Shown: positions 2,625 through 59,401 of the stretch, piece after piece
Position numbering within the stretch: the first letter of the stretch is position 1
Layout: each line of letters opens with the position of its first letter
DNA from: an uncultured Candidatus Rokubacteria bacterium
GTDB lineage: Bacteria > Methylomirabilota > Methylomirabilia > Rokubacteriales > DASRDR01
Assembly (NCBI GenBank): GCA_963708025.1
Contig: CAVPSB010000018.1
Span: 416,001-480,000, forward strand
Direction of reading: 5' to 3'
DNA: 64,000 nt
Position numbers and translations under genes: made by a program
The notes under the pieces: generated by a model
The model's input: only the letters and a program-made list of their open reading frames with translations
The model's database searches: none
What the model was told of the DNA's origin: nothing

Positions 2625-4058
2625 CTACCGCCGCTTGGCGGCTGACCGCGGCGCGCGCCGGGGGGCGGGCTCGGGGGCGGCCCCGGGGGCGGGAGTGAGG
2701 GCGCCGTCGGTGACGCCGGCCAGCGCGATGCCGGCATCGGCGAGCGGCTTGGCGATGCGGTCGCGGATCCAGTGCTCGTCCCACCACTCGAGCGGGTTCA
2801 CGTAGTAGCCGTTGACGAGCATCGCGAAGTGGAGGTGGTCTCCCCCGGCCATCCCCGTCTCGCCGCTTCGTCCCAGCGCCTCTCCCCGGCCGACGCTCTG
2901 CTCGGCCTTGACCGCGATCTCCGAGAGGTGCGCGTAGAGGGAGTACAGGCCGAGCCCGTGGTCGAGGAGGACCATGTTCCCGTAAATCCCGTTGGGGCCG
3001 ATGAACGCGACCCGGCCCGCGTTGGCGGCCTCGACCGGGGATTGCTTGCGGGAAGCGAGGTCGATGCCCAGGTGCCACTGGGTGTCCACCGTCCGCCCGT
3101 CGAACACGTAGGTCCGCTCCTCGGGGAAGTTGGCGAACACCTTCGTGTTGGACTGCTGGCGGAAGACCCCCTGCCAGACCGGCTTGGGCGAGCTGGCGCC
3201 CTGCGCGACCGCGCGGATCTTGGCCTCGTTCGCCTTCCGGCCCTCCCGGTTCACCTTGAGGAAGGCGTCCAGGAGTTGCGCGGTGCCGGCGTTACCCGCC
3301 GTCTGGGGGGCCAGCTCCGGCACCTTGCGCTGGAGGAACGGCTCGGTCAGCTTGATCGTGTCCTTCGGGAACCGGGTGGGGAGGTAGGTCACGGACACGC
3401 TGAGCACGCGCTGGTTGCCGGCCTCGTCCTCGGCGAAGATCGTGGGCGACGCCTGGGGCCCGTCGTACGGAATCGCGAACAGGGCCACCTGAACCGCGGC
3501 GTCGGGCGCGAGCCCGGATACGCCCGGGAAGAAGGCCGAGCCCACCTGGACTCCCGAGCGCGCCGCGCCCGCCACGCGGTAGACGGCGATCCCGGCCCCC
3601 GCGTGCTTGATGTAACCCGTCGCCGCCTTCAGCTCGATGGTGGGCGGCGTGAGGTCGACCGTGAACCGATGGACGAGCCGCGGAGCCGGATCGGGCCGGG
3701 GCCGCCACAGCGCGTCGCGGGCCAGGACCACCAGCTCGGCCGGCCCCTCCTTCAGCCCGAGCGCCGCCGCCTCGAGCGTCAGCGGTCGATCGGCCTCGCG
3801 GGGCGCGCCGGCCGGGAACTCCTCCGTCAACACGGTCCGCGAGCTCCCGCTCTGGACGACCCGGGCCTCCAGCGACTTGAGCGGCCCGGCCGGAGCCTGG
3901 AGCCGGAGGGTGATCGTCCGCTTCGGGTGGCCAAGGGCGGCGAGCGCGGGCTCGAGGGTGACGAGGACACCCGGCTGGCGCTGCCGCCACACGACGTAGC
4001 CACCTGCGGCGAGGAGGAGCACGAGGAGGGCGAGCAGGACCTTCCAGGCGCGGAACAT
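2625..4058 (-). CDS. M23 family metallopeptidase
   Basis: HLGIDL, YAHLS and HLHF zinc motifs; N-terminal TM anchor. Confidence 0.92.
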   Translation of the reverse strand: MFRAWKVLLALLVLLLAAGGYVVWRQRQPGVLVTLEPALAALGHPKRTITLRLQAPAGPLKSLEARVVQSGSSRTVLTEEFPAGAPREADRPLTLEAAALGLKEGPAELVVLARDALWRPRPDPAPRLVHRFTVDLTPPTIELKAATGYIKHAGAGIAVYRVAGAARSGVQVGSAFFPGVSGLAPDAAVQVALFAIPYDGPQASPTIFAEDEAGNQRVLSVSVTYLPTRFPKDTIKLTEPFLQRKVPELAPQTAGNAGTAQLLDAFLKVNREGRKANEAKIRAVAQGASSPKPVWQGVFRQQSNTKVFANFPEERTYVFDGRTVDTQWHLGIDLASRKQSPVEAANAGRVAFIGPNGIYGNMVLLDHGLGLYSLYAHLSEIAVKAEQSVGRGEALGRSGETGMAGGDHLHFAMLVNGYYVNPLEWWDEHWIRDRIAKPLADAGIALAGVTDGALTPAPGAAPEPAPRRAPRSAAKRR

Positions 4059-4142
4059 CTCCGAGGCATCCTACACAGACGACTCGCCGCCGTCAAACTT
4101 TGAGCGCTGCTTCATCGGCGGCGCGAGGCGCCCCGGCGCGCT

Positions 4143-5108
4143 TCACGACAGCCACGGCGTGACGCGGTCGGCTCGGTCCGCGACCCGCGCGAAGTGCCGG
4201 GCGGCGTAGTCGGCGAAGTCGAAGGGGAGCCGCGAGACGCCGATCTGGACCAACCCCCACATGGCCTCCCGGAGATCGGACGCGAGCCGCATCACCCCGA
4301 GCCGCGCCAGCGCCCGCGGCGTCGCGTCCTCGCCGTACAGCTCGAGGAGCCGCCGCTCCTCGGCCGGTCCCAACTCGCCATTGGCAGCCAGGTTGCCGAG
4401 GTCGAAGTAGCCGTCGCCCATCGCCGCGTACTCCCAGTCGAGGATGCGGATGCGGGCGCCGTCGTCGATGAAGTTGGCGGGCAGGAGGTCGTTGTGGCAC
4501 GGGACGGCCGGATCGGGGGGCGCGGCCGCTTCGATGCGGCGGACGAGCTCGAGCCACGCGGGAAGGGCCGGCGGGAGGGCGACCCCGTGGGCGAGGGCGA
4601 CGTCGCGGTAGCTCTCCACGGTCCGGAACGCCGAGAACCGGCCCGGGATCGACGGCCCCCGATGGACGCGCCGGATGGCCTCGACGATGCGACCCAGGGT
4701 GGCCGGGTCGTGGACGTCGGCCGCCTCCAGGCCGCGGCCGTCGATGAATCGCGTGACCAGGACCGCCGCTTCGGGGAGAGCGAACACCAGCTCGGGGCCG
4801 ACGCCGAGGCCGGCGGCCACGGCGGTCGCTGCCTGCTCCCGCGCGCGGTCGATCCCCAGGAGGCCGGTGCCCTCGCCGCCGATCCGGACGACGAACGTCC
4901 GGCCGTCCACGTCCACCCGGTAGTTCTCGTTCGTGATGCCGCCCGCCAGGGGCGTGATGCGGCACGTCGCGGCGGCGGCCCAGCCCGGAACCCGGGCCAC
5001 GACCTCCTCGACGGATATTCGGGGCCTCCCGCCCTCCCTCCCGCCCCCTCCCCCACCCACCGGGGGGGAGGGGGAGCCGGAGGACCGGATTCCTTCCGAC
5101 GCTCTCAA
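4143..5108 (-). CDS. Choline/ethanolamine kinase family phosphotransferase
   Basis: GGITNENY, CHNDLLPANF, ILDWEYA motifs; N-terminal ~30 aa encoded by a repeat element. Confidence 0.88.
   Translation of the reverse strand: MRASEGIRSSGSPSPPVGGGGGGREGGRPRISVEEVVARVPGWAAAATCRITPLAGGITNENYRVDVDGRTFVVRIGGEGTGLLGIDRAREQAATAVAAGLGVGPELVFALPEAAVLVTRFIDGRGLEAADVHDPATLGRIVEAIRRVHRGPSIPGRFSAFRTVESYRDVALAHGVALPPALPAWLELVRRIEAAAPPDPAVPCHNDLLPANFIDDGARIRILDWEYAAMGDGYFDLGNLAANGELGPAEERRLLELYGEDATPRALARLGVMRLASDLREAMWGLVQIGVSRLPFDFADYAARHFARVADRADRVTPWLS
5018..5087 (-). repeat. Palindromic repeat family A copy
   Basis: Reverse complement reads GGTCCTCCGGCTCCCCCTCCCC...GGGCGGGAGGCCCCGAA, matching copies at 6167, 10093 and 25389. 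Confidence 0.75.
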
Positions 5109-6082
5109 TGGGTGCGCCAGGCGTCGGGGTTGACGAGGTTCGGCGGCCGCTGGCCGGCGAGCGCGGCGACGCAGTTCTCGGCGGCCCGCGTTGCCATGGC
5201 GAGCCGCGTCGCCCGGGAGGCCGAGCCGACGTGGGGCGTGAGGACGACCTGGTCCAGCTCGACGAGCCCCGGATGCACCCGCGGCTCGTCCTCGAAGACG
5301 TCGATCCCGGCCCCGGCGAGCCGGTGCTCCTGGAGAGCGCGGACCAGCGCCGCCTCGTCGACGACCGGGCCGCGGGCGACGTTGACGAGGTAGGCGCTTG
5401 GCTTCATCAGGGCCAGCTCGGCATCTCCGATCAGCCGGCGGGTCTCGGGCGTGAGGGGGACGGACAGGACGACGAAGTCCGCCTCGCGGAGGAGGTCGGT
5501 CTTGGACCGGTAGGCGGCGCCCAGACCTTCGGCCTCGGGATCGGGCCGCCGGGTGTGGTAGAGCACCCGCATGCCGAAGCCCGAGGCGCGTCGGGCGATG
5601 GCCTTCCCAATCCGGCCGAGGCCGATGATCCCGAGCGTGGCGCCCTGGACGTCGCGCCCCAGCATCAGACTCCAGGTCACGCCCTTCCAGCGCCCGGCCC
5701 GGACGAACCGGTCGCCCTCGGCCACCCGGCGCGCCGTGGCCAGCATGAGCGCCCAGGCCATGTCGGCCGTCGTCTCGGTGAGGACGCCCGGCGTGTTCGT
5801 GACGAGGATCCCCCGCCGGGTGGCGGCGGCGACGTCGATGAGGTTGTACCCCACCGCGGCCACCGCGATGACGCGAAGGCGCGGGGCGGCCTCGATGACC
5901 GCCGTCGAGACCGGATGGGAGCCCATCGGGATCACCGCCTCGACCGTGGCGACCCGATGGCGCAGCTCGGCCTCGGGCAGCTCCTCCTCGACCGGGCTCG
6001 TCTCGACGGTCCCCGCCTGCTCGAGGATCGCGCGGGGCTCGGGCTCCATCGGCCAGGTGACGAAGATCCGCGGATCGGGCAT
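5105..6082 (-). CDS. D-glycerate dehydrogenase / glyoxylate reductase (D-2-hydroxyacid dehydrogenase)
   Basis: VTNTPGVLTETTAD, GIIGLGRIG, NVARGPVVDE, DVFEDEP, TPHVGS. Confidence 0.93.
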   Translation of the reverse strand: MPDPRIFVTWPMEPEPRAILEQAGTVETSPVEEELPEAELRHRVATVEAVIPMGSHPVSTAVIEAAPRLRVIAVAAVGYNLIDVAAATRRGILVTNTPGVLTETTADMAWALMLATARRVAEGDRFVRAGRWKGVTWSLMLGRDVQGATLGIIGLGRIGKAIARRASGFGMRVLYHTRRPDPEAEGLGAAYRSKTDLLREADFVVLSVPLTPETRRLIGDAELALMKPSAYLVNVARGPVVDEAALVRALQEHRLAGAGIDVFEDEPRVHPGLVELDQVVLTPHVGSASRATRLAMATRAAENCVAALAGQRPPNLVNPDAWRTH

Positions 6083-7576: not shown

Positions 7577-7745
7577 CCGCTAGTCGCGACCTCTCGCATC
7601 GAGTGAAGCACGAAAGCGGGCCCCGGGGCCGCTCGATTTCCAGCCGGCGCTCCGGCGGAATGGCCGGCCGGCTGGCTGTTGCCCCGAGACCTTTTCCCGT
7701 AGAATGGGCCCGTTTCGTCTCCCACACTTCACCATGGAGGTCCGC

Positions 7746-8042
7746 ATGGGTCAGATGAAGGAGTTCGCCGGCGTCTATTACCGGGAGGGGGCCCTCGACC
7801 CCAAGACGATGCAGCTGGTGGCGCTGGCCGCGATGGCGGCGGCTGGCTGCACGTCCTGAGTGCCCGGACGCTTCGCGGCTGCGAAGCAGGCCGGCGCCAC
7901 CGAGGACGAGATCAGCGAGGCCCTGATGTACGCGATGCGGGGCCGGGCCCGCGCCGCCTGGAGCACGATCAAGCACATCGAGGGCATCGAGGACCTGAAC
8001 AAGGCGTGGAAGACGAAGTACGAGCGAGAGAACGGGAAGTAG
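7746..8042 (+). CDS. Carboxymuconolactone decarboxylase/AhpD-like protein, probable selenoprotein (CxxU)
   Basis: GGAGG RBS; EGALDPKTMQLVALAAMAAAGCTS-TGA(7857-7859)-VPGRFAAAKQAGATEDEISEAL continues in frame; hairpin 7870-7887. Confidence 0.8.
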
Positions 8043-8123
8043 CCGACGCTGCTCCGTGACCGCCGCGGACCCGTCAGGGCCGCGGCGGTCGATGACCCTT
8101 CACCGGCACGCCGGGAGCCACCC

Positions 8124-9050
8124 ATGCCCTACTGTCGGACCGATGACCGGGTGCGCATCTACTACGAGGAGCATGGACCCGCCGGGAGCGGCGCACCAGA
8201 GGTCGGAGGCCGTCCGGACGACGCCGCGGGCCGCCGGCGCCGCGACCAGGCAAGTGGCACACCGCTGGTCCTCGCCTACGGCATCGGCGGCAACACCGAC
8301 ATGTGGGACACCAACACGGCGGCCCTGGCCGCCCGCCACCGGCTGATCCTGTGGGAGCCTCGCGGGCACGCGCGCTCGGATAGCCCCGCGGACCCGGCGA
8401 AGTACTCGTTCGCGCGCTGGGCCCTCGACCTGCGTGATCTCCTCGACCACCTCGGGCTCCGGACGGCGCACGTGGGCGGGCTCTCCCTCGGCGGCGGCAT
8501 CGCCACCCGGTTCGCCCTCCGCTTCCCCGGGCGGGTCCGCTCGCTGCTCGTGACCAACTCCTCCTCGGCCTCGGGGCTGCCGCTGTCCGTGGAGAATCTG
8601 GTCATGCGGGCCCGGAGCGTCGAGATCACGCTGACCCAGGGCATGGACGCGATGGCCGAGTACGCGATGGCGACGAACCCCAACCTGATCGCGCGGCTCG
8701 CCCTGAACCCCGACGCCAAGGCCGAGTTCTACGAGGAGTATCGCCGGCTCAGCCCGATCGGCTATGCGAACTCGTGCCGGGCGCTGATCGCCATGGATCA
8801 CATCACCGCCGAGCTGCCCCGGCTGGCCGAGCGGAAGATCCCGGTGCTGCTGATCGGCGGCGACCGCGATCCGTCGCTGGCCCCCATGCGGGTGATGCAC
8901 CGGAAGATCCGCGGCTCGAAGCTCGTCGTCCTCTCGTCCGCGTCGCACTTCGCCAACCGCGATCAGCCCGAGGCATGGAACCACACGGCGCTCGACTTCC
9001 TGGCGCGGTGCGACGGGCGGAGCGCCCGCCCGCGCGGCAGAGCGGCTTGA
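8124..9050 (+). CDS. Alpha/beta fold hydrolase
   Basis: GLSLGG nucleophile elbow, EPRGHARS, C-terminal His (ASHFAN); ~26-aa insertion near the N-terminus. Confidence 0.9.
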   Translation: MPYCRTDDRVRIYYEEHGPAGSGAPEVGGRPDDAAGRRRRDQASGTPLVLAYGIGGNTDMWDTNTAALAARHRLILWEPRGHARSDSPADPAKYSFARWALDLRDLLDHLGLRTAHVGGLSLGGGIATRFALRFPGRVRSLLVTNSSSASGLPLSVENLVMRARSVEITLTQGMDAMAEYAMATNPNLIARLALNPDAKAEFYEEYRRLSPIGYANSCRALIAMDHITAELPRLAERKIPVLLIGGDRDPSLAPMRVMHRKIRGSKLVVLSSASHFANRDQPEAWNHTALDFLARCDGRSARPRGRAA

Positions 9051-47862: not shown

Positions 47863-50800
47863 TTAGGGGTACGGGCGCGACCTCAAGGTGAGTCCCCACG
47901 CGGCCGCCCAATGGCCGCCTCCGCCTGCTCCAGCCAGAAGCGTCATGCCCATCTCGCGGTACATCGTTGTCGCGGTGGTCAGGTGGTCGCTGCGCCTCTC
48001 GCGCTGGCCGGTCCGCCGGTAGAGCTTGCCGAGCCCGAGGTGGCAGTGGGCGACCAGGGGGCGCATCCCGAGCTCCTCGATCCTAGCGAGGGCTTGGCGA
48101 TAGTGCGCGTCGGCGGACTCCACGTCAGGAGGGTCGGCCCGGGCGGCGATCTCGGCCAAGAGGCGGAGGGCCCACGCCTCGTTGCCGCGCTCCTTCTGCC
48201 GGTGGGCGAGGTCGAGGGCGCGCCGGGCGACCGCGAGCGCGTCGTCCCGGCGGCCGGCCAGGAGGTGCGCCTCCCCGAGGTAGGCGAGGAACAGCGGATG
48301 GTTGGCGATGCCCGTCACCGCGGGGTCGGCGAGCGCCTCCTCGATGAGGGCCGCGCCCTCGGGGAGGCGCCCCGACAGCGCGTACGCGTACCCGAGATGC
48401 GCGGCCGAGACGTCGAAGAGGGCCCGCACCGGGATGACCCGGCAGAGCTCGACGGCGCGCTCGAGCGGCGGGATGGCCTGCATGAGGTCGCCGCGGCGGA
48501 GAGAGACGAGCCCGAGGCTCCGGTAGGCGACGACGAGGCTGCGAGGATGATCGATCTCGCGGGCGATCCGGCCGGCCTCGTCGGCGCGCGCCATCGCCTC
48601 GGCGAACTCGCCCAGCTCCGCGAGGCACCAGGCGAGCCCGTCCCGCATGAAAACGGATGTCGCAATGTTGGTTTCCAACCGTTCGTACCGCCGATCGCCC
48701 TGAAGCGCCTCGACGGCCCGGCTGAGGCACTCGGCAGCCTGTCGATAGTCGCCAATGGTCTGCCAGACGATCGCCCAGGCGCTGGGTCGCCCACGTCTGG
48801 AGAGAGACGTCATCGCGGCCGGTGGCGAGGACGAAGGCCCGCTGGGCCAGCTCGAGGGCGCGGTCCGGGTCACCTCCATCCAGGTCAGGACCGCGAGCCG
48901 GGCCAGGGCCCGCCCCAGCCGGCCTCCGTCGCCCAGCGTCTCGGCGAGGCGCTCGGCCTCGCGGGCATGCTCGGTGACCTTCGCCCGCCTGCCCATTGCC
49001 CCAGGGCGACGCTGGCGTCGAGGTGGAGGTCGATGGCCTGCTCCGTCCGCGCGCGACTCTCCGGAAGGTGCTGGAGCGCGTCGAGCGCCTGGTCGAAGCC
49101 GGCCGCCGCCTCCCGGTAGGCCGAGCGCTCCATCGCCTTCGCCCCGGCCTGACGGAGATAGGGGACGGCCTTCTCCCACACTTCGCCCCGAAGCGCGTGG
49201 TGAGCCAGGCGCTCGACGTGCTCCGCGAGCCGCTCGGGGTAGCATCGCTCGATGGCCTCGACCGCCCGGGCGTGGAGTCGCGCGCCGGCGGTCCTGCAGG
49301 AGGCTTCCGTAGGCCACCTCGTGGGTGAGCGCGTGCTTGAAGGTGTACTCGACGTCGGGGAACAGGCTCGTCTCGTAGAGGAACTCGGCCGCCTGGAGCC
49401 GGGCCAGGCCATCGGCCAGCGCGTCCGCGGGTCGCTTCGGCGACGCCCGCGAGCACGGCCATCGGGACGTCGGTGCCGACGACCGAGGCGGTCTGGAGCA
49501 GCGCCTTGTCCTCCGGCGGCAGCCGGTCGATGCGCGCCGCCAGGATGGCCTGCACCGTCGCCGGCACGTGGACGGTCTCCCGAGCCTTCACGAGCCGATA
49601 CCCACCGCGCTCGCCTGCGAGCACCCCGTCGTCCACGAGGCTCCGCACGCTCTCCTCGAGGAAGAAGCGGGTTGCCCTCGGTCCGCGCGAGGAGCAGCCG
49701 TTTCAAGGGCTCGAGGCCGGCGTCGCTCCCGAGCAGAGTCTCCAGCAGCACCGCCGCATTCTCCGGCGCGAGCGGGTCCAGCCGGAGCTGACGGTAGTAG
49801 GTCTTCCCGCCCCAGTCGTGCCGGTACTCCGGGCGGTAGTTGACGAGGAGCAGCACCCGGGCCGTCGGCAGACTCTGCGCCTCGGAGAATGGGCGCACCT
49901 CCGAACGCCAGATCACCACAGCGCCGATCGGGATTCCCTCGCGCAGCATCGGCACAGCCAGCACCGTTCGCAGGTGGAGAATCGACTGCGCCGGATTGCG
50001 GTATTGCGGATCCTGCGTGACGTCGGGGATGTGGATGACCTGACCCTCCATCACCGCCCGGCCCACTGCGGACTCCCGCCCCGGCTCTATCACCGCCACT
50101 ACGGACTCCCGCCCCGGCCGTTGCGGAAAGGCCTTCCGGATAGCCTCAACATCCGCCGGTGTGAATCCGAAGGTCGCTTCAAGCGAGAGCAGCTCCCCAT
50201 CGAAGCGCAACAGGTTGCTGCGCGTGGCCCCGCACAGACGAGCCGCGCTCTGGACGATCGTGTCGAAGACTGGCTGGACGTCGGTGGGGGAACTCGAGAT
50301 GACGCGCAGGATCTCACTCGTCGCCGTCTGCTGCTCGAGCGCCTCTGTCAGATCGCGGTTCTTCACTTCGAGTTCCTTGAACAGACGGACGTTCTCGATG
50401 GCGATCACGGCCTGATCCGCGAACGTTTGGAGAAGTGCGATCTGCTTGTCCGCGAAGGGCCGGACCTCGTGGCGTCGAATGGTGATCACGCCGATCGCCA
50501 CCCCCTCGCGGAGCAGCGGCACTGCCAGCATTGTGCGGACGCCTCTTTCCAAAGCGAACTGGGGCATGCCTGGAAAGTCATCTCGAGCGGCGACCACGAT
50601 GTCGTGGATGTGGATGGGTACAGCGTCAAGCACGGCACGACCGCTCGGCACATCGCGTCGAATCCGAACATTGTCATCCCACGCCGGCCCGTGGACAGCC
50701 ATAGTCTGAAGGAACTCTCCGTGAACACGCCGCACGGCAGCATCGGTCGCGCCGCACAGCCGGGCGGCGCTTTCAGCTATCGTGTCGAAGACCGGTTGGA

Positions 50801-53156
50801 GATCGGTCGGCGAGCTCGCGATCACTCGCAGAATCTCGCCCGTGGCGGTCTGCTGGTCGAGCGCCTCTTTCGTCTCGTTGAATAGCCGGACGTTCTCGAT
50901 CGCGATCACGGCCTGGTCGGCAAACGTCTTGAGCAGCCGTATCTGATCATCCGAGAATGGACCCACCCGCGCGCGCGACACTGCGATTGCTCCGATGGGG
51001 CGCCCCTCTCGCAGTAAGGGTACCGCCACGAGGCTTTGGCCCCCGGTACGGGATACGTATTCCTGGTCGTAGTCCGGATCCTGCCGCGTGTCGGGGATAT
51101 GGACAATCGCGCGGTCCACGATCGCTCGGGGCAGCGCGAAGGCTCGGGAGAGTCGCATAGGGTACCGCGGCGCAAGGACCTTCAGCCGGTCAGGAGCGAT
51201 GTCGTAGGCGGCGACAAGGTGAGCCAGCTCCCCGTCCAAACGGATGACAGCACCCGCGTCTCCCTCGCACAGCTGGACCGCACTCCGTGCGATGGTGTCG
51301 AACACGGGTTGGACATCGGTCGGGGAGCTACTGATTACTCGAAGGATCTCCGCCGTCGCCGTCTGCTGCTCGAGCGACTCGGTCAGCTCAGCGTTCCGCG
51401 CCTGCAGCTCGTGGAACAGCCGGACGTTCTCGATGGCGATGACCGCTTGGTTGGCAAAGGTCTCTAGGAGTTCGATCTGCCTCGCCGAGAAGGGCCGAGC
51501 GTCCGCCCGGCGGATCAGGATGGCGCCCAGAGGCACGCCCTCGCGGAGGAGCGGCGTGGCCAGAAGCGTCCGGATCCTTATCGACGTGCCCTCGGATGCG
51601 AGTGCCCGCGTTTCCGGGAACTCCGTCTCGGGCAACGCCAGGAGGTCTTCGACGTGAATCGTCCGTCGCTCTAGCACGGCCCGGCCCGTCACATGCCCAC
51701 GCCTGGCAGGGACTATGTCCCCGATACTCAGAGGCCTCGGCAGCACTCCGTGCTGAGCGACGAATCGCAAGACTTCCCCATCGAAACGAAAGATGGCCGA
51801 ATCGATGGCACCGCAGACCCGCGCGGCGTTCTCGGCTACCGTGTCCATGACCGGCTGGAGATCGGTCGGCGAGCTCGCGATCACCCGCAGGATTTCGCCC
51901 GTCGCGGTCTGCTGATCCAGCGCCTCGGTCACCTGCGCGTGTGCTTGTGTGAGGGCACGGTTCTTCTCTTGGAGTTCCGTGAACAGCCTCACGTTCTCGA
52001 TCGCAATCACCGCCTGGTTCGCGAACGTCTCGAGCAGCGCGATTTGCTCGTCGGAGAATGGCGTCGGCTCGGCCCGCGACACGCTCACCGCCCCGATAGC
52101 ACGGCCCTCCTGGAGCATCGGCGCCACCAGGATGCTCCGATACCCGAGGGCTCGCCCTCGAGCGCGGGACCACTCGGACATCGTCGGATCGGTCTCGACG
52201 TCGAGAACGTGGACGATTCGGCCGCCCTCCGAGATTGCTCGGTCGATCAGGCTTTCCAGGGTGCCCAGGCGTCGGGGATACGCACGGTGAAGCCGCTCGA
52301 GGGCGTCCGGCGTCGTGTGGTTGGTCGCCACCAGATGGAGCATCTCACCGTCATAACGCGCGACGGTACTGTAGAGACCCGAGCAGAGGCGCACGGCGCT
52401 GGCCGCGATCGCGTCGAAGACGGGCTGGAGGTCGGTCGGCGAGCTCGCGATCACCCGCAGGATCTCGGCCGTGGCGATCTGTTGCTCGAGCGCCTCTTTC
52501 GTCTCGTTGAACAGGCGGACGTTCTCGATGGCGATGACCGCCTGGTTGGCGAAGGTCTCGACTAGCTCGATCTGCTTGTCGGTGAAGGGCTGCGGCACGG
52601 TTTTCGCGACGAAGATCACGCCGACGACTCTACCCTCGCGCAAGAGCGGGGCGCCGAGCGCGGCCCGCCAGTCGCCAATGTCCTGAGCGCCACTCCAGGC
52701 ATAGTCCGTCTCGGCCAGCACATCGGCCACCTGAACAACTCTGGCCTCCAGCGCGGCTCGCCCGGTGATGCTGCCATGATTCACCGGGACCGGGCGGCTC
52801 TTGAAATAGTCCCTGATTCGTGCGTGCACCTCGGTCGCAAGACCGAAACTGGCGGCGTAGCGGAAGATTTCGCCCTCGCGCTGGAACAGCAAGGCATGAT
52901 CGGCATCGCAAAGCCGGACGGCCGACTCGCAGAGTGCGTCGAGCACGGTCTGCAGGTCGAACGCCGAGCGGCTGATGACCTTTAGCACATCGGCGGTGGC
53001 GGTCTGCTGCTGCAGCGCCTCGGTCAGGGCGTGCTGAAGGTCTTCATATGACTGTCCTCGGGGGCCGGTCTCGCGCGTAGGCGTAAAAGGCGTACCACAT
53101 TCAAGACAGAACTTGGCGTGCGAGGGGTTGTCCTGATGGCACCGGACACACTTCAT
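47863..53156 (-). CDS. Zinc ribbon + six GAF domains fused to C-terminal half of an AAA-TPR protein; frameshifted in distal part
   Basis: CxxC..CxxC, repeated QQTAT.EIL...FADQAVIAIENVRLF units, abrupt switch to SLPTARVLLLVNYRPEY. Confidence 0.8.
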
Positions 53157-53270
53157 ACCGCGGCCTCCAACTGGGGCAGCCGGACCGGTCTCCGACGCAG
53201 AACGAATGGGGGGAGCTTAGCCGGTGGTTCCCCCGGGGTCAAGGATCGCCGATTCGGCGCGGAACCGTAG

Positions 53271-53333
53271 TCTAACCCGCACGTGCGCCGGCGGAGCGAG
53301 CAACGCGAGCCCGCCGCCCGCTGAAGCGTGATG
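53271..53333 (-). other. attC-like site interrupted by IS (remainder at 55173-55180)
   Basis: Rejoined minus strand: GCCCAAC ATCAC GCTTCAGCGGGCGGCGGGCTCGCGTTGCTCGCTCCGCCGGC...GTTAGAC. Confidence 0.6.
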
Positions 53334-53423
53334 ATTCTCATTCAGGCCTCCTCCCTGCCACCGGCAGGGTAAGGTGATTGCGGCCAAACAACACCCGCCC
53401 CACCGGGGCAAGGAGGAGACCGG

Positions 53424-54480
53424 ATGAGATTCTACACAACGCAGCACCGATACTACTGCGGCATCGATCTGCACGCCCGACACGATGTACGTCTGCGTCC
53501 TCGACGCCGAGGGCAAGGTGCGCGTCCACCGCAACGGCCCGGCCAGCCCGGAGCACTTCCTGGCCACGATCGCGCCGTACCGCGAGGATCGTCGTCGTGG
53601 CCGTCGAGTGCATCTTCACCTGGTACTGGCTCGCCGATCTCTGCGCCCAGGAGGGCATCCCCTTCGTCCTCGGCCACGCCCTCTACATGAAGGCCATCCA
53701 CGGCGGCAAGGCCAAGAACGACAAGATCGACTGCCCACAAGATCGCCGTGCTGCTCCGCGGCGGCATGATCCCCATGGCCTACGTCTACCCGCGCGAGAT
53801 GCGGGCCACCCGCGATCTGCTGCGCCGGCGCTGCCACCTCATGCGCAAGCGCGCCGAGCTCCTCGCCCACATCCAGAACACCACCAGCCAGTACAACCTG
53901 CCCGCGCTTCGGCAAGAAGATCGCCTACAAGGCCAACCGCGACCGGCGTGGCCGAGCACTTCCCCGATCCCGAGGTCCGCAAGAGCATCGAGACGAACCT
54001 CGCCCTGCTCGATCACTACGATCGGCTGCTCACCGACCTCGAGCTGCACCTCACCCGCACCGCCAAGGTGCCACGACCCCAACGCCTTCTACCGCCTGCG
54101 CTCGGTGCCCGGGATCGGCAAGATCCTGGCCCTGGTGATCCTCTACGAGATCCACGACATCGACCGCTTCCCCCGCGTCCAGGACTTCGTCTCCTACTGC
54201 CGCCTGGTCAAGTGCGCCAAGGAGTCCGCCGGCAAGCACTACGGGTACTCGGGCAAGAAGATCGGCAACGCCCATCTCAAGTGGGCCTTCTCCGAGGCCG
54301 CCGTCCTCTTCTTGCGCAAGAACCCCGCGGGCCAGCACTACGTCGCGACGCCTCGCGCCAGCAAGCACGGCAAGGCCAAGGCGCTCACCATCCTGGCCCA
54401 CAAGCTGGGCGCGGGCCGTCTACTACATGCTCCACGCGCCAGCAGGCCTTCGATCCGAAGACGTTCTTTGGCCTGAGCGG
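53424..54480 (+). CDS. IS110 family recombinase/transposase, frameshifted, C-terminus uncertain
   Basis: GIDLHAR, VAVEC, KNDKID (DEDD); SVPGIG, ESAGK, GNAHLKWAFSEAA. Confidence 0.9.
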
Positions 54481-54649
54481 GACCAGCGAGACGTCCGCGT
54501 TGCGCGCCGAGGCCGAACACGACGCTCTGCTGGTAGGCCGGGGATCAGCCGGCGTTCAGAGCGCGAGGCCTAGGACGCGCACGTCCGTGTGCGCGCGAAT
54601 CCACGGTGGCCGCCATGACCAGCCGACCGAGCGAACGCTGACGACTCGA

Positions 54650-55158
54650 GGGGAACGGAAGAGCCTTCCGCCTAACTGGACCTGCCTGAGGGACCGAGCC
54701 CGACCGATGCCGCGTCGATCCTGCGGCCGCGACCGCCTGCCGGCATCTGGGCCGTGATGGTCCCGGAGTCCTGGCGTTGATTGGACTCCCGTTCCCGCTC
54801 GACGATCTTCTCGGCGCGCCGTTCGGCCCGAGAGCTGTGGGCTGCCCCTCACCCGAGCCGCGAGCTAACTGGACCGGTCAACGCGACCAGAGCCCGACGC
54901 TTTGAATCGGCCGGCGACGAGGGAACCGATGAGTTTCTAGGCCGCGGAGAGGCTGCGTTCTCTCCGCTCCGGTGACCCGACGGCTATCCGTGTCGCCGGA
55001 TCGAGCGTCGATAAGTGTTTGGTGCAGACCGCAGAGTCTGACGCCGCCTGTCGGAAATCAAGTCAGCGCACGTCTCGCGGACCCGGACGTCGTGCCGCTT
55101 CGTCACGCGGGAGCCCCTCCGCCCCCGCGACGGGAGCGGTGTCGTCCTCTTGACAACT
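54650..55158 (+). ncRNA. Candidate bridge/seek RNA region
   Basis: Long non-coding region downstream of an IS1111-type tnp, with hairpins and short matches to donor junction and target. Confidence 0.55.
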
Positions 55159-55424
55159 GGAGGCCTGATAAGTGTTGGGCGATCGATGTCTCGGCCCCAG
55201 TTGCACAGACAGATCACTACGGATTTCCCGGCCTGCGAAAGGAGTAGTTCGCGGCCGCCGATACCTGCGACCCGGTGGTAGCTCTGCCTGGACCAGTAGC
55301 CCTTGTAGACAGCGGTCACAGGACGATCAGTTCTATGCGTCTGCTGCCGGAAGGCTTCTTGAAGAATCTCCCGCCGTGACAGGGGTCGGCCGGCGATCCG
55401 GGCCGATTTGGCTCATGAACGGGC

Positions 55425-55715
55425 TCATACGGACGGGCCCGCGCGTCCCACCGTCGATTCCGCGCGGTTTTGCGTGGCTGAGGACAACGGTCTCTGGGAC
55501 CGGCGCGGTCGGCCGAGGCCCTGCTCCCGCGCCTCCAGCCAGCGCAGCAGCCTAGCCTTCGGGAAGCGGACCGTGCGGCCGATCCTCAAGACGGGCATGC
55601 TGGCGTCCTCGCTGGCCCACCGGAAGACGGACTTGACGCTGACCTGCAGCATCTCGGCGAGCTGCTCGGCCGTCCAATACTCCTTCACCGGCGCCGCTGC
55701 GAGAAGGTCAGGCAT
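55425..55715 (-). CDS. Excisionase-like HTH protein
   Basis: YWTAEQLAEMLQVSVKSVFRW...RIGRTVRF...LLRWLE. Confidence 0.82.
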   Translation of the reverse strand: MPDLLAAAPVKEYWTAEQLAEMLQVSVKSVFRWASEDASMPVLRIGRTVRFPKARLLRWLEAREQGLGRPRRSQRPLSSATQNRAESTVGRAGPSV

Positions 55716-56237
55716 CGACGAGCCCCCATGGCCGAGCGAACCCATCGGGCGGCCGAGGCGGCTCAACGCCATGACCGCGTGCTTCTACCGGGACCGACGC
55801 GAGGCGATGAAAAACTGGCGCCTGCTGCAGCGGTTGGGCTTGTTGGATGACTACCTCCGAGCCTCCCCACGCGACACTCAAGACTGCGAAGCTGTCCCTT
55901 GGTGTCGCCGGTGAGGCCGGTTGCTGGCTCGAGCTGTCTCTGGATCACGAGCCCGCTCCCTCCGTCGAGTCGTTGTCCGCCGAGGCCCTTTCGCTGCTCG
56001 ACGAGCTCACGTGGATGTCGCGCTCGGCGAGCCACGTGCGGATGGCGTCCTCGCCGCGGAGGGTGTCCGCACAGATGAGGACGTCGGTCGCGATGAATGC
56101 GTGACCCCGGCAGGAGCCGATGATCAGAATGCTCGAACCCTGACCAGGCCCCGGTGTCTGGCGGCTGGTGGTTGGAAGCTCCGACTTGTCTGGTGAAATG
56201 CGCCTGGCTGCCATGTCGTCGTCCGTCGGCCCGTCTC

Positions 56238-57515
56238 TCATGGGGTATCGTGGTCCCCGTCGACCCGGGGCTCGGTTCTCGGCGCAGACGTGCGGCCTGT
56301 GCTGGGACCCTCGGCCCCGCAAGGACCTCCCTCGACGCGCTTCGCTTTCCGGTGCCCGAACCATGGCGGCGTGGCACTCCATGCGGAGACCAGGCGGCGC
56401 TCGGTGTCGGGCCGGCGCTTCAGGAAGGCCGCGAGCGCACGACCGTCGGCAGTGAGGAGCGGCCAGGGATCGGCCCCGGTCTCGGTCGCCGCGCGGAAGA
56501 CGGCCGCGGCGTCGTACCGCCCCTTCGTGGGGAAGAAGCCGAGCTCCACCCCGTCGAGCGCCAGGGGGTCGCGGTCCTGGAGGTATTGCCTGAGACGCTC
56601 GCGGAGGCGAGCGACGCGGGCCTCACCAGTCAGGAGCAGCGCTGCGAGGCGGCGGGCCTCGGCCTCGTCGGGGATCGGCGCCTCATCCATGGCCTCGAGG
56701 GCGGCCAGGCCGGCCGGACACCGGTTCACCCAGGGGCAGGTCGCACACGCGGTCGAGGGCCGGGGCGGGAACGCGCCGGGATCGTCGGGGGTGGCGAGGG
56801 CCTGGGCGATACGAGCCGCGGTCGTCCGAGCCCAGGCCAGTGTCTCGGCGGTGTCCGCCGGAGTGAAGGCCGTGCGGGCGACCCGGCGGGTGCGAAGGTA
56901 GTGGTACTCGACCGTGACCGCCTCGAGCCGCGGCGCCCACGCCCACAGCAGCGCCGCGTAGCAGCCCGGTGCCCATGCCCACTGCAGAGTCTCGTCGTCC
57001 TCCGTGGCCCAGCCGCTCTTCCAGTCGCACACCGTGGCCCGCCGGCCATCCAGGGCGACGAGATCGAGCCGGCCGCGGAGAAAGGCGGCCGGGGCGTCCC
57101 ACCCGACCTGCCGGCCTCCAGCGTCGATCGCGAGCGCGTGCTCGACCGCCACGGTGTGTTCCACCGACACGACCCCGTGAGCGAGCCAGGTGCTCACGAG
57201 GGCCGAGGCCTCGCGGGCGACCGCGGTCCCTGCCTCGTCTGGCAGGGCATGCCGGGTCACTAGATCCCGTGCGAGCGCCGGTATCCGATCGAGCGGCGGC
57301 CAAGTGCCAGTGGCCTGGGCCTCGCGGACGTACGCCTCGACCAGCGCGTGGGCCACCGACCCGACTAGGCGGGGCCGCTGATCGGCGACCGGCTGCGGGA
57401 GTCGCAGCACGTACTCGAACCGGTACGCCGCGGGACACCGGTCCCAGGCGTCGAGGCGCGAGGGACTGACCCGCGGGAGCTTCTCGGTGGCCGTCTGGAG
57501 CGCGGTCACACTCAT
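56238..57515 (-). CDS. PD-(D/E)XK nuclease, RecB/AddB/Cas4-like with 4 Cys
   Basis: SPSRL...CP, GSVAH, GRLDL...DWKSG, CATCPWVNRCP; ATGA-coupled to UvrD. Confidence 0.85.
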   Translation of the reverse strand: MSVTALQTATEKLPRVSPSRLDAWDRCPAAYRFEYVLRLPQPVADQRPRLVGSVAHALVEAYVREAQATGTWPPLDRIPALARDLVTRHALPDEAGTAVAREASALVSTWLAHGVVSVEHTVAVEHALAIDAGGRQVGWDAPAAFLRGRLDLVALDGRRATVCDWKSGWATEDDETLQWAWAPGCYAALLWAWAPRLEAVTVEYHYLRTRRVARTAFTPADTAETLAWARTTAARIAQALATPDDPGAFPPRPSTACATCPWVNRCPAGLAALEAMDEAPIPDEAEARRLAALLLTGEARVARLRERLRQYLQDRDPLALDGVELGFFPTKGRYDAAAVFRAATETGADPWPLLTADGRALAAFLKRRPDTERRLVSAWSATPPWFGHRKAKRVEGGPCGAEGPSTGRTSAPRTEPRVDGDHDTP

Positions 57516-59401
57516 GACGGGGTAACCTCCACGGTAGTTATGGTGATAGGCCTCGTCGGAGCCGACCGGATGTCGAGGCCTGATTCCCGGAGGAAGCGGG
57601 AGGGCGGCCGAAACACGACATCGCCCCAGAGGCGGCGCATCCGGGCCACCGAGCACACGAGCCGCTGACGCGCCCGGGTCATGCCGACGTAGCAGAGGCG
57701 GCGCTCCTCGGCGAGCGCCTCGGGAATGGTGTGGCGGTAGTGCGGCAACAGTCCCTCCTCGATCCCGACGATGACCACCGTGTCGAACTCGAGACCCTTG
57801 GCCGCGTGCAGCGTGAGGCCGAGCACCTGCGTCGCGGCCGGGGCCCGGGCGTCCTTCTCGCTCAGCACGACCGTGTCGAGGAACTCGCCCAGGTTCTCGC
57901 CGCCGTCCGCCTCCCACCGCCGCGTGAGGGCGACCAGCGCGGCCATATCCTCGGCGCGACGAGCCTCCGGGCTTTCGTCCGGGCGATGGCCGTGGATCTC
58001 CCGCGCCAGCGTCTCGAGGAGCTGGCTGACCGGGGCCGGCCCGGTCCGCCAGATCGCGAGCTGCTGGAGGAGCGCGGCCAGCCGCGGACGGGTTCGCGCG
58101 GCCTCGGTCAGCGCCGCGGCGACCCCCACGCCGGCGGCGCGGGCGCGAAGCGTGGCCAGGGTCTTCGCCCCGATCCCGCAGCGGAGCCCGCGCAGGATCC
58201 GGTCCCAGGCCGGCCAGTCGGCGGGGTTGACGAGCACGCGACAGACGGCGAGGCAATCGCGTACGGCGGCGCGCTCGGCCAGGGGCCGGTCCGCGAGCAC
58301 CCGGACCGTGAGGCCGCGTGCCACGCAGGCCCGCGCGATCGGGCCCAGGCACGCCGTCACCCGTGCGAGGACGGCGATGGGTGGACCACTGGTCCGCAGC
58401 CAGTCGGTGCACGCGGCGGCCAGCCCCTCGGCTTCCGCCCGGTCGTCGGGCCACGTGAGAACCGTGGGGACTGGCCCGGCCGGCCGCACCGCGGCGAGCG
58501 GCTTCGGCCGGCGGGTGCTGTTGTGCGCGATCAGGCGCGCGGCGGTCGTCACGATCTGGGGTGTGGAGCGGTAGTTCCGGCCGACGGCGAGCACCGTGCC
58601 GCCCAGGTACGTGCGCTCGAAGGCGTGAAGGCGCGTGAGGTCAGCGCCACGCCATCCGTAGATGGCCTGGTCGTCGTCCCCGGCGAGCGTCACCGCGCCG
58701 TCCGGGGCCGCGAGCGCCTCGATGAGGGCGTGCTGGAGGGCGCACAGATCCTGCGCCTCGTCAACCAGCACGGCCTGGAACCGCGCGCGCAGCGCCGCGC
58801 GCACGGCCGGCTCGCGCGCGAACAGCCCCAGGGGCTCCGCCAGCAGATCCAGAAAGTCGAAGGCGTTCGCCTCGCGACACCGGGCCTCGTAGGCGACGCG
58901 AAGGGCCGCGATCGGGGACCGTGTCGGCCCCGGCCCCGGGGCCCCGGCGACACCGGGCGTCCTGGCGCGATCGAGGGCCTCGACGAGCGTCGGCAGGTCG
59001 CCGTCGAGGCCGAGGCCCTTCACGAGGCGGGCGACGAGCCGCCGGGTGTCCTCGCGGTCGAGGATCGTGAAGGCGGGCGTCCGGCCCACCGCGGCGGCGT
59101 GGCGGCGGAGGAGCCAGGCCCCGAACCCGTGGAACGTCCCCGTCCAGAGCGCCCGGGCGCGTGGGCCGAGCGCCTGGACGAGCCGACCGCGCAGCTCGTC
59201 CGCCGCCGCGCGCGAGAACGTGAGCGCGAGGATCGCCGTCAGATCGAGCCCGTCGTGGTCGATCAGCCACTGGATCCGGTGCGTGAGGATCCGGGTCTTG
59301 CCGCTGCCGGGCCCGCAGGCGAGCAGCAGGGGCCGGGCCGGATGCGTGACCGCGGCGCGCTGGGCCGGGTGCAGCGCCGCCAGCGTCTCGTCCAGGAACA
59401 T
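57512..59401 (-). CDS. UvrD/PcrA-like SF1A helicase
   Basis: GPGSGKT, TFH, VDEAQD, GDDDQAIYGWRGA, NYRS, TLHAAKGLEF, EERRLCYVGMTRA. Confidence 0.93.
   Translation of the reverse strand: MFLDETLAALHPAQRAAVTHPARPLLLACGPGSGKTRILTHRIQWLIDHDGLDLTAILALTFSRAAADELRGRLVQALGPRARALWTGTFHGFGAWLLRRHAAAVGRTPAFTILDREDTRRLVARLVKGLGLDGDLPTLVEALDRARTPGVAGAPGPGPTRSPIAALRVAYEARCREANAFDFLDLLAEPLGLFAREPAVRAALRARFQAVLVDEAQDLCALQHALIEALAAPDGAVTLAGDDDQAIYGWRGADLTRLHAFERTYLGGTVLAVGRNYRSTPQIVTTAARLIAHNSTRRPKPLAAVRPAGPVPTVLTWPDDRAEAEGLAAACTDWLRTSGPPIAVLARVTACLGPIARACVARGLTVRVLADRPLAERAAVRDCLAVCRVLVNPADWPAWDRILRGLRCGIGAKTLATLRARAAGVGVAAALTEAARTRPRLAALLQQLAIWRTGPAPVSQLLETLAREIHGHRPDESPEARRAEDMAALVALTRRWEADGGENLGEFLDTVVLSEKDARAPAATQVLGLTLHAAKGLEFDTVVIVGIEEGLLPHYRHTIPEALAEERRLCYVGMTRARQRLVCSVARMRRLWGDVVFRPPSRFLRESGLDIRSAPTRPITITTVEVTPS

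Follow-up and report, generated by a model that had tools for sequence, protein, structure and literature searches.

An environmental clade of IS1111-group insertion sequences with a long, multi-module candidate guide RNA and attC-like targets

We analysed 64,000 nucleotides (nt) of DNA from an uncultured Candidatus Rokubacteria bacterium (assembly GCA_963708025.1, contig CAVPSB010000018.1, positions 416,001 to 480,000; hereafter the window, in whose numbering all positions are given) and found that the insertion sequence at 53332-55174 belongs to a widespread clade of environmental IS1111-group elements, which carries a conserved non-coding tail downstream of its DEDD recombinase gene. Judged from sequence comparison, the conserved core of this tail, about 416 nt long (54651-55066), is most likely one long guide RNA of the bridge/seek type, and we consider it probable that the explanation holds as a whole, with an element of an IS1111 clade encoding a long multi-module guide RNA. 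The evidence consists of the conservation of the core, RNA-type covariation in its helices, covariation of two guide segments (the 5' strand of module M1, and module M3) with DNA, and the nature of the targets. The type of system, a bridge or seek RNA, is already known; its size, its duplicated loop and its insertion point are new.

Relatives and a conserved three-module tail

Relatives were retrieved from genome contigs with a 94-amino-acid (aa) in-frame piece of the recombinase as query, which returned at least 597 pattern matches, at least 401 of them encoding a relative. We analysed the best 80 of these at least 401 loci (68-87% identity), nearly all from metagenome-assembled genomes and from many phyla, with hosts that included Nitrospirota, Rokubacteria, deltaproteobacterial, Gemmatimonadota and other metagenome-assembled genomes. 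A search of plasmid DNA added three Candidatus Manganitrophus plasmids, in which similarity was confined to the gene at about 74% identity, for a total of 83 loci (designated L) and, with the window, 84 sequences. The recombinase gene was uninterrupted in 44 of the 83 loci, mostly at a length of 347-348 aa.

An earlier reading of the letters alone (the sequence-only reading) had proposed an IS1111-type element, and every string that it cited was found where it had been placed. The assignment was borne out by homologues that have both Pfam domains, a subterminal repeat, a downstream non-coding region and a fixed insertion site; the intact L009 and L004 matched DEDD_Tnp_IS110 (PF01548) at 1e-14 and 3e-15, and Transposase_20 (PF02371) at 3e-19 and 1e-19, respectively. 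In the window, the 10-bp subterminal inverted repeat, within the 7-17 bp of the IS1111 group, with its short extensions and the TG core at both junctions were present as read (Table 1). At least 500 nt of non-coding DNA had been seen after the gene, and we measured about 695 nt from the end of recombinase homology (~54480) to the right core, compared with 92 nt upstream of the gene. The element is 1843 bp long in the window versus 1610-1675 bp typically among family loci, and no second copy was found in the 64-kb window.

When the window's tail was compared with the other loci by BLAST, conserved blocks stood separate from each other, and iterated nhmmer searches detected three modules, M1 in 73, M2 in 71 and M3 in 66 of the 84 sequences. 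The core that they make up is family-wide, non-coding and structured. From the start of M1 to the end of M3 it spans a median of 410.5 nt (64 sequences; 416 nt in the window), with a guanine-cytosine (GC) content of 44-68% across genomes, and M1 starts directly after the stop codon in most loci. The window and its closest relatives (L004, L005, L007, L010, L043) contain an additional spacer, 170-300 nt long and not conserved, which in L004, L010 and L043 is translated as a non-conserved C-terminal tail (open reading frames, ORFs, of 427, 453 and 445 aa); in these three loci, 80-106 additional codons form a low-complexity tail that reaches or overlaps M1. The sequence-only reading had named a conserved protein in this region as evidence that would count against a guide RNA. 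We found a stop-free frame across the M1-M3 span in only 7 of 64 sequences and none in the other 57, and the span contains no conserved ORF. Supernumerary module matches occurred in L058, which has an additional match of all three modules upstream, inside its 10-kb locus, and in L013, which has two M1 matches.

The closing helix and apical hairpin of M1 were paired in 95% of cells, versus 29-40% in slid controls, and contained 190 double-change cells versus 47.3 in shuffles, with 0 of 500 shuffles as high. Compensatory changes were also found in six of the eight predicted pairs of M2. When alifold was applied to profile alignments, M1 and M2 alike formed an internal loop with the CUAAC block on one strand and the UUUGA(U/A) block on the other, and because the conserved blocks face each other in the same layout we regard the two modules as paralogous. 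Both copies of CTAACTGGAC noticed in the sequence-only reading (54672 and 54865), one in each of these modules, turned out to be conserved; the word occurs twice in the window, with 0.00 occurrences expected and 0 of 100 shuffles reaching 2. The CAGAC (55025)/GTCTG (55036) hairpin of M3, likewise noticed at the outset, is conserved with compensatory changes: of 54 distinct sequences, 37 have a stem of at least 5 bp that starts from (G)CAG, its distal pairs varying. A possible helix between M2 and M3, of UCUAGG (M2 tail) with CCUCGA (M3 head), was assessed by eye; it is compensated in L006 and L058 but broken in several other loci.

Matches between module segments, element ends and flanks

Junctions were identified by pattern search (50 left, 49 right, both ends in 38 sequences); the patterns demanded TTGAC and a repeat-like motif, which hence are not independent findings, and the right-end block was recovered independently by BLAST in many loci. 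Throughout the family the layout runs from left flank, core, 8 nt and 10-nt repeat to 10-nt repeat, 4 nt, core and right flank. The left core is TG in 47 of 50 junctions and GG in 3, and left and right cores mismatch in some loci (TG/GG, GG/TG, TG/AG), with variation in the first base. Core G and right flank begin with GTT in 44 of 46 junctions and give a complete GTTRRRY in 21 of 46, while left-flank positions are strongly conserved out to -16.

Phylogenetic noise swamped the raw mutual information computed for columns of the modules and positions at the junctions, and we replaced this measure with diagonal pairing scans and with permutation tests in which flanks were shuffled among loci (10000 permutations), whose counts, given the relatedness among the sequences, are not true probabilities. 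Scans were restricted to Watson-Crick pairs because the GU-rich UGUUUGGUG of M3 pairs with almost anything when G-U is allowed. Three diagonals were far above the 99.9th percentile of all segments scanned: M1 columns 20-25 with the top strand at core G and right flank (0.82), M1 columns 127-132 with the bottom strand from left flank -2 to left end 2 (0.86), and M3 columns 10-16 with the bottom strand from right end -5 to the core (0.93). A fourth, M2 columns 90-95 with the top strand at left end 3-8 (0.67), was at and not above that percentile.

M1 columns 19-25 formed on average 5.56 of 7 Watson-Crick pairs with the core G and positions 1-6 of their own right flank and 5.10 with permuted flanks, a value reached in 0 of 10000 permutations (6 of 10000 with wobble), and exact compensated pairs of guide and flank were present in L008, L045, L051 and L064. 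The sequence-only reading had noted that the first CTAACTGGAC lies within GCCTAAC, the attC R'' consensus; this GCCUAAC pairs with the right flank of GTTRRRY type and covaries with it significantly in a locus-specific manner, and in the window it forms six Watson-Crick pairs and one G-U pair (54670-54676 with GTTGGGC at 55174-55180). The top-strand match of M1 lies 5' of its bottom-strand match, and the two overlap at the core G. On the 3' strand, the window's UGAUU (54778-54782) reproduces the core followed by positions 1-3 of the left end.

At the other end of the core, GATAAGTG (55010-55017) had been read as a copy of the right end plus core (55167-55174), and this correspondence covaries across the family. 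The word occurs twice in the 64 kb, both times inside the element (0.24 expected; 6 of 100 shuffles reach 2), and the repeat extends to 12 of 13 bases. M3 column 13 and right end -2 (n = 49) combined as A/A 32, G/G 9, G/A 7 and C/A 1 and never as A/G, consistent with an RNA that pairs with the bottom strand and tolerates G-T wobble, and in L021 and L083, where the core is GG, the GG is mirrored in M1 and M3. The M2 tail tested against left end positions 3-8 gave 45-98 of 10000; column 92 and left end 6 combined as G-C 16, U-A 8, A-T 5 and U-C 11 (30 of 44 pairable), and in the window AUGAG (54929-54933) is complementary to CTCAT (53337-53341). Donor-end matching is thus good for M3 and the right end, with few distinct pairs, and partial for the M2 tail and the left end. 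UUUGG in M3 is invariant in its match to right flank 1-5. We also tried M3 GGUGCAG as a left-flank guide, as it equals the consensus at -12 to -6 (0.66-0.69), and rejected it, since its variants do not covary; it is probably part of the hairpin stem.

Two assignments made at the outset did not survive this analysis. AATCA (55056-55060), proposed as a left-end guide, showed no covariation (3216-5878 of 10000 against core plus left end, in columns one base off the AATCA word) and is a common word with 7 + 12 occurrences in the window; AAUCA was combined with TGATA left ends in 6 cases and with TGATT in 3, and AAUGA was likewise seen with TGATT. Of the donor loop imagined around the M3 hairpin, GATAAGTG and the hairpin therefore stand and AATCA as the second flank falls, the better left-end match being that of the M2 tail (AUGAGU), with a conserved UGAUU in sense orientation located in M1. 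CGTGATG (54753-54759), proposed as a left-target guide, is inside an M1 block that is not conserved in homologues; it is found at the left junction (53327-53333) too, and the window as a whole has 7 copies on the + strand and 5 of the reverse complement. The CGTGATG and AATCA matches look like chance, which removes two of the five specific assignments of the sequence-only reading; its core idea is right.

Across the family the targets appear to be attC-like hairpins, clearly so for many homologues, with insertion at G|TT of the R' box, which we take to be the integron integrase crossover point as well. Arm duplexes (28-nt arm versus upstream) had a mean of -15.1 kcal/mol (280 control arms: -10.5); of 28 sites, 10 were at or below the control 5% quantile, with more judged attC-like by eye. 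Many sites form an imperfect AAC...GTT-anchored hairpin with two single-base bulges six pairs apart (5-1-6-1 pattern). The window's own site is only weakly attC-like: its arm duplex (-16.6 kcal/mol) is above the control 5% quantile of -17.5, its fold when rebuilt as 70 nt is not significant (z = -0.5 versus shuffles), and it matches the family left-flank consensus GTCnGnTGCAnCnnnT only in part. The initial proposal of a large multi-loop guide RNA for attC-like targets holds for the multi-module structure and for the targets of many homologues, and is only weakly shown for the site in the window. Uninterrupted target-like sites numbered 6 per 520,356 nt of locus flanks versus 0-4 in 20 shuffles, with none in the window, and are only suggestive of cassette arrays; those matching the target pattern in L009 (6654), L011 (7192) and L081 (53 and 5871) are all co-oriented with the element, as cassette arrays would lead one to expect. 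No integron integrase was found among 12 neighbouring ORFs scanned.

Several observations weigh against a long guide RNA, in addition to the limits given above for the junction patterns and the permutation counts. The M1 3' strand gave a modest 87-221 of 10000 against the left flank, and the window's M1 matches its left flank at only 3 of the 5 positions compared (GCGU would align with GCGT after a slip of 2 nt). M3 against right end and core gave 222-751 of 10000, from 12 distinct pairs only, and L045 is an exception to the core covariation. The M2 5' strand does not covary with the right flank (7682-8768 of 10000) and had no match by eye to the R'' end of attC arms, the M2 loop being without a DNA partner among those compared; M2 also retains UG in the GG-core loci L021 and L083, and pairing of its tail fails in a large subgroup (U-C in 11 of 44 at the key column). 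A consensus fold of M3 from a MAFFT alignment contained zero pairs, the minimum free energy of a single-sequence fold of 54645-55150 was no better than that of shuffles (z = -0.94), and an Rfam 15 scan of 53000-55600 (E <= 10) returned no matching family, only miRNA and frameshift-element models that we judged spurious. The recombinase gene of the window copy is, moreover, broken.

Alternative explanations and a proposed mechanism

Guidance by a short seekRNA of ~80-170 nt alone, roughly M1 or part of it, with M2 and M3 as unrelated conserved elements (for example regulators of how the recombinase is expressed, or signals for transcript stability, processing or termination), seems to us quite unlikely. 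It would agree with the sizes of known IS1111 seekRNAs, 82-96 nt for short and 148-172 nt for long forms (Siddiquee et al. 2024, PMC11187229; PMC13604230 Table 1), with the 82-nt RNA that suffices for ISEc11 (PMC11187229), with the partnerless M2 loop and with the complementarity of UGUUUGGUG in M3 to recombinase codons 4-7 in several loci. Separate roles for M2 and M3 are, however, hard to square with the covariation of AUARGUG in M3 with right end and core, the mirroring of the GG core by both M1 and M3 in L021 and L083, and an M2 tail that tracks the left end in part; donor-binding nucleotides in multi-loops have, in addition, already been predicted in print for IS1111 bridge RNAs (Durrant et al. 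2024, PMC11208160). The codon complementarity involves the near-invariant UGUUUGGUG and CACCAAACA in L019, L027, L035, L047, L050, L071 and others, whereas CACAACGCA, its counterpart in the window, is a poor fit; it could reflect RNA-RNA regulation or be a by-product of a conserved peptide motif.

The internal copies could also be DNA sites acting in cis rather than RNA guides, with GATAAGTGTTTGG an alternative right end or the relic of one and with the recombinase binding at the CTAACTGG and TTGATT blocks, which we hold to be very improbable. Such sites would account for an internal 13-mer that equals the right junction in 12 of 13 bases and for the tandem duplicate of M3 and right end in L025 (5772-5833 and ~6017-6078, two right ends 245 nt apart), and end recognition in IS1111 is thought to proceed partly via subterminal repeats (PMC11187229). 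Yet the internal copy has neither a subterminal repeat nor TTGACA next to it, the helices around the segments show the compensatory changes expected of a folded single strand, and the M1 5' strand tracks a flank that is host DNA, a match that a site acting in cis does not need. That the copy is a dead element with no working guide and with chance matches in a GC-rich tail, as its 8 frame-breaking insertions, the chance-level CGTGATG and AATCA and the energy z of -0.94 might suggest, is scarcely credible and for the family already largely refuted by modules kept in 66-73 of 84 sequences over 44-68% GC and by covariation both between guide and flank and in the M1 helices, and a neighbouring gene that is frame-broken too makes assembly error as likely as decay.

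Under the preferred explanation, an IS1111 element with a long multi-module guide RNA, the RNA would by analogy be read from the recombinase transcript. A promoter scan of the integrated copy found none, and a promoter may instead form when the ends are joined in the excised circle, with the -35 TTGACA of the right end, a -10-like GATTCT spanning core and left end, and an 18-nt spacer, by analogy with ISEc11 (cited in PMC11187229). M1 would be the loop that binds the target and the M2 internal loop its duplicate, the donor ends would be read by two split segments that flank the variable hairpins and thereby create a multi-loop, and insertion would take place at G|TT of the R' box in attC-like hairpin sites. 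Transcription, processing, protein binding and the order of the strands we infer, as we do a handshake role: AUU after the core in M1 and UUUGG after the core in M3 appear to resemble the handshake guides described for IS621 (Hiraizumi et al. 2024, PMC11208158). In a bolder version, which we think unlikely, the guide RNA is tripartite and ~400 nt long, its two paralogous loops are both of the target type, M1 for the insertion site and M2 for a second DNA, and reading of the donor ends is split. If true, M2 might read the donor flanking site during excision or a second site class, and the complex would hold three recognition units versus two in IS621 and cut exactly at G|TT of the R' box.

The window copy and its relation to known systems

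As assembled, the window's recombinase gene differs from six homologues by 8 single-base insertions (53481, 53589, 53732, 53909, 53943, 54071, 54407, 54435) and a 3-nt insertion (54353-54355), with no internal deletions against the same six, and its reading frame shifts among all three frames. One of seven frame pieces (54066-54347) matched Transposase_20 (PF02371) at 1e-20, whereas the N-terminal domain went undetected by Pfam because frameshifts split that part of the gene. All 8 frame-breaking differences are insertions, about 1 per 130 nt over 53481-54435, and such one-sidedness seems closer to what a sequencing or assembly artefact would leave than to natural decay. In a different frame, a TPR-bearing ORF (47863-49317) overlaps a neighbouring zinc-ribbon gene with six GAF domains (ORF 48885-53156, - strand), whose translation switches between sensible and garbled stretches in its C-terminal part; the region 47863-53156 (- strand) looks like a single long regulator gene split by frameshifts. 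Assembly error is as likely as decay because this gene is frame-broken as well, and the window copy may be either inactive or mis-assembled.

The leader hairpin of the window, outlined at 53341-53425 by the spurious miRNA-model matches, has the same CCUCC/AGGAGG arrangement in the left-end alignment of homologues. Several homologues also repeat the right-hand subterminal repeat (GGAGGCCTTA type) immediately ahead of the ATG. Read-through transcripts may be controlled in their translation by this arrangement. To the right of the element, 55425-59401 (- strand) contains an HTH_17 (excisionase-type) ORF, a PD-(D/E)XK nuclease ORF and a UvrD-type helicase, which may belong to another mobile or repair module.

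Table 1 Features of the IS1111-group element and its flanks in the window.
Feature	Position	Strand	Basis or remark
Left flank with candidate attC-like arm	53269-53331	+	GTCTAAC 53269-53275 (RYYYAAC type); GC-rich imperfect pairing to ...GCTGAAGCGTGA
IS1111-group element	53332-55174	+	TG cores, subterminal inverted repeat, DEDD recombinase gene, long 3' tail
Core dinucleotide TG, left copy	53332-53333	+	Sequence
Left end, 8-nt extension ATTCTCAT	53334-53341	+	Same layout in 50 left junctions
Left subterminal inverted repeat TCAGGCCTCC	53342-53351	+	Repeat search
5' leader with imperfect hairpin	53352-53423	+	Pairs repeat-region CCUCC with AGGAGG ribosome-binding site
AGGAGG ribosome-binding site	53411-53416	+	Sequence
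DEDD (IS110/IS1111-type) recombinase gene, broken as assembled	53424-54480	+	Three-frame reading, alignment with 6 homologues
Variable spacer	54481-54650	+	Alignment, module offsets; confined to window, L004, L005, L007, L010, L043
Module M1, candidate target-binding internal loop	54651-54800	+	nhmmer, helix and guide covariation
M1 closing helix	54651-54661 with 54786-54796	+	Covariation
M1 apical hairpin	54721-54737	+	Covariation
M1 3' loop strand GCGUUGAUU	54774-54782	+	Left-flank bases, core UG 54778-54779, AUU = left end 1-3
Module M2, internal loop paralogous to M1	54841-54948	+	nhmmer, compensatory changes
M2 helix, CCCUC with GAGGG	54846-54850 with 54919-54923	+	Predicted pairing
M2 5' loop strand CUAAC	54865-54869	+	Conserved block
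M2 3' loop strand UUUGAAU	54901-54907	+	Conserved block
M2 3' tail AUGAGU	54929-54934	+	Complementary to left end CTCAT 53337-53341
Variable hairpins, M2 tail to M3 head	54949-55001	+	By-eye pairing; length and sequence differ among loci
Module M3	55002-55066	+	nhmmer
M3 segment GAUAAGUG	55010-55017	+	Equals right end plus core
M3 near-invariant UUUGGUGCAG	55018-55027	+	Conservation
M3 hairpin, CAGAC/GUCUG	55025-55029/55036-55040	+	Direct count across sequences
M3 segment GGAAAUCAAGUCAG	55053-55066	+	M3 alignment
-35-like TTGACA in right end	55150-55155	+	Sequence
Right subterminal inverted repeat GGAGGCCTGA	55159-55168	+	Repeat search; perfect 10-bp partner of TCAGGCCTCC
Right-end extension TAAG	55169-55172	+	Sequence
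Core dinucleotide TG, right copy	55173-55174	+	Sequence
Right flank TTGGGC	55175-55180	+	With core G = GTTGGGC, a GTTRRRY (attC R' type) box

The clade shares a DEDD recombinase, subterminal inverted repeats and a long downstream non-coding region with ISEc11, ISPa11, ISKpn4 and ISPst6, the lack of a detected internal promoter with ISEc11, and with IS1111 seekRNAs the order of matches, with the segment for the top strand placed 5' of that for the bottom strand and the two overlapping at the insertion point (PMC11187229). It differs from those seekRNAs in a region of ~410 nt, well beyond the sizes given above, and in having two paralogous loops plus a third module, with explicit matches to the right and left ends. 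As in the IS621 bridge RNA, the strands of the internal loop would pair with opposite DNA strands on either side of the core dinucleotide, target and donor would be recognised separately, and extensions of the guides match partner DNA in the manner of handshake guides. Bridge RNAs of IS621 are 150-250 nt long with a strand order the reverse of that in IS1111 (PMC11208160), whereas the RNA predicted here would be about twice as long, lies 3' of the gene, has the loop strands in reversed order and carries its handshake-like extensions on bottom-strand guides, and its donor segments are split around hairpins rather than held in one internal loop.

With the IS1111-attC group (ISKpn4, ISPst6, ISPa25) the clade appears to have in common orientation-specific insertion into attC-type sites near their GTTAG end, but the insertion point of that group is AA*CG, 11 nt upstream of GTTAG (PMC13604230 Table 1, a 2026 review), whereas the clade inserts at TG|TTRRRY, in the R' core itself, a different point in the same kind of site. 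Plasmid matches at E <= 1e-20 came from marine genera and Candidatus Manganitrophus and included no Klebsiella or Pseudomonas, and the clade recombinases are therefore not close relatives of those of the IS1111-attC group; a plasmid search with an Enterobacteriaceae copy (L073) returned no match. In the literature searched, supplements and ISfinder aside, we came across neither an IS1111 RNA that is tripartite and 400 nt long nor an insertion point at the R' core.

Taken alone, the window is a modest result, one possibly defective copy of a known element type. RNA-guided IS110/IS1111 recombinases are under development as programmable genome-insertion tools, and their IS1111 branch is far less understood than IS621. 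A clade this large and broad provides natural variation from which to learn how IS1111 RNAs read donor ends, in a guide region 2-3 times longer than those described, with a duplicated loop and with guide-to-DNA rules that are legible from sequence. The clade would also represent a second, distinct route by which insertion sequences reach integron attC sites, which bears on the dynamics of cassette arrays.

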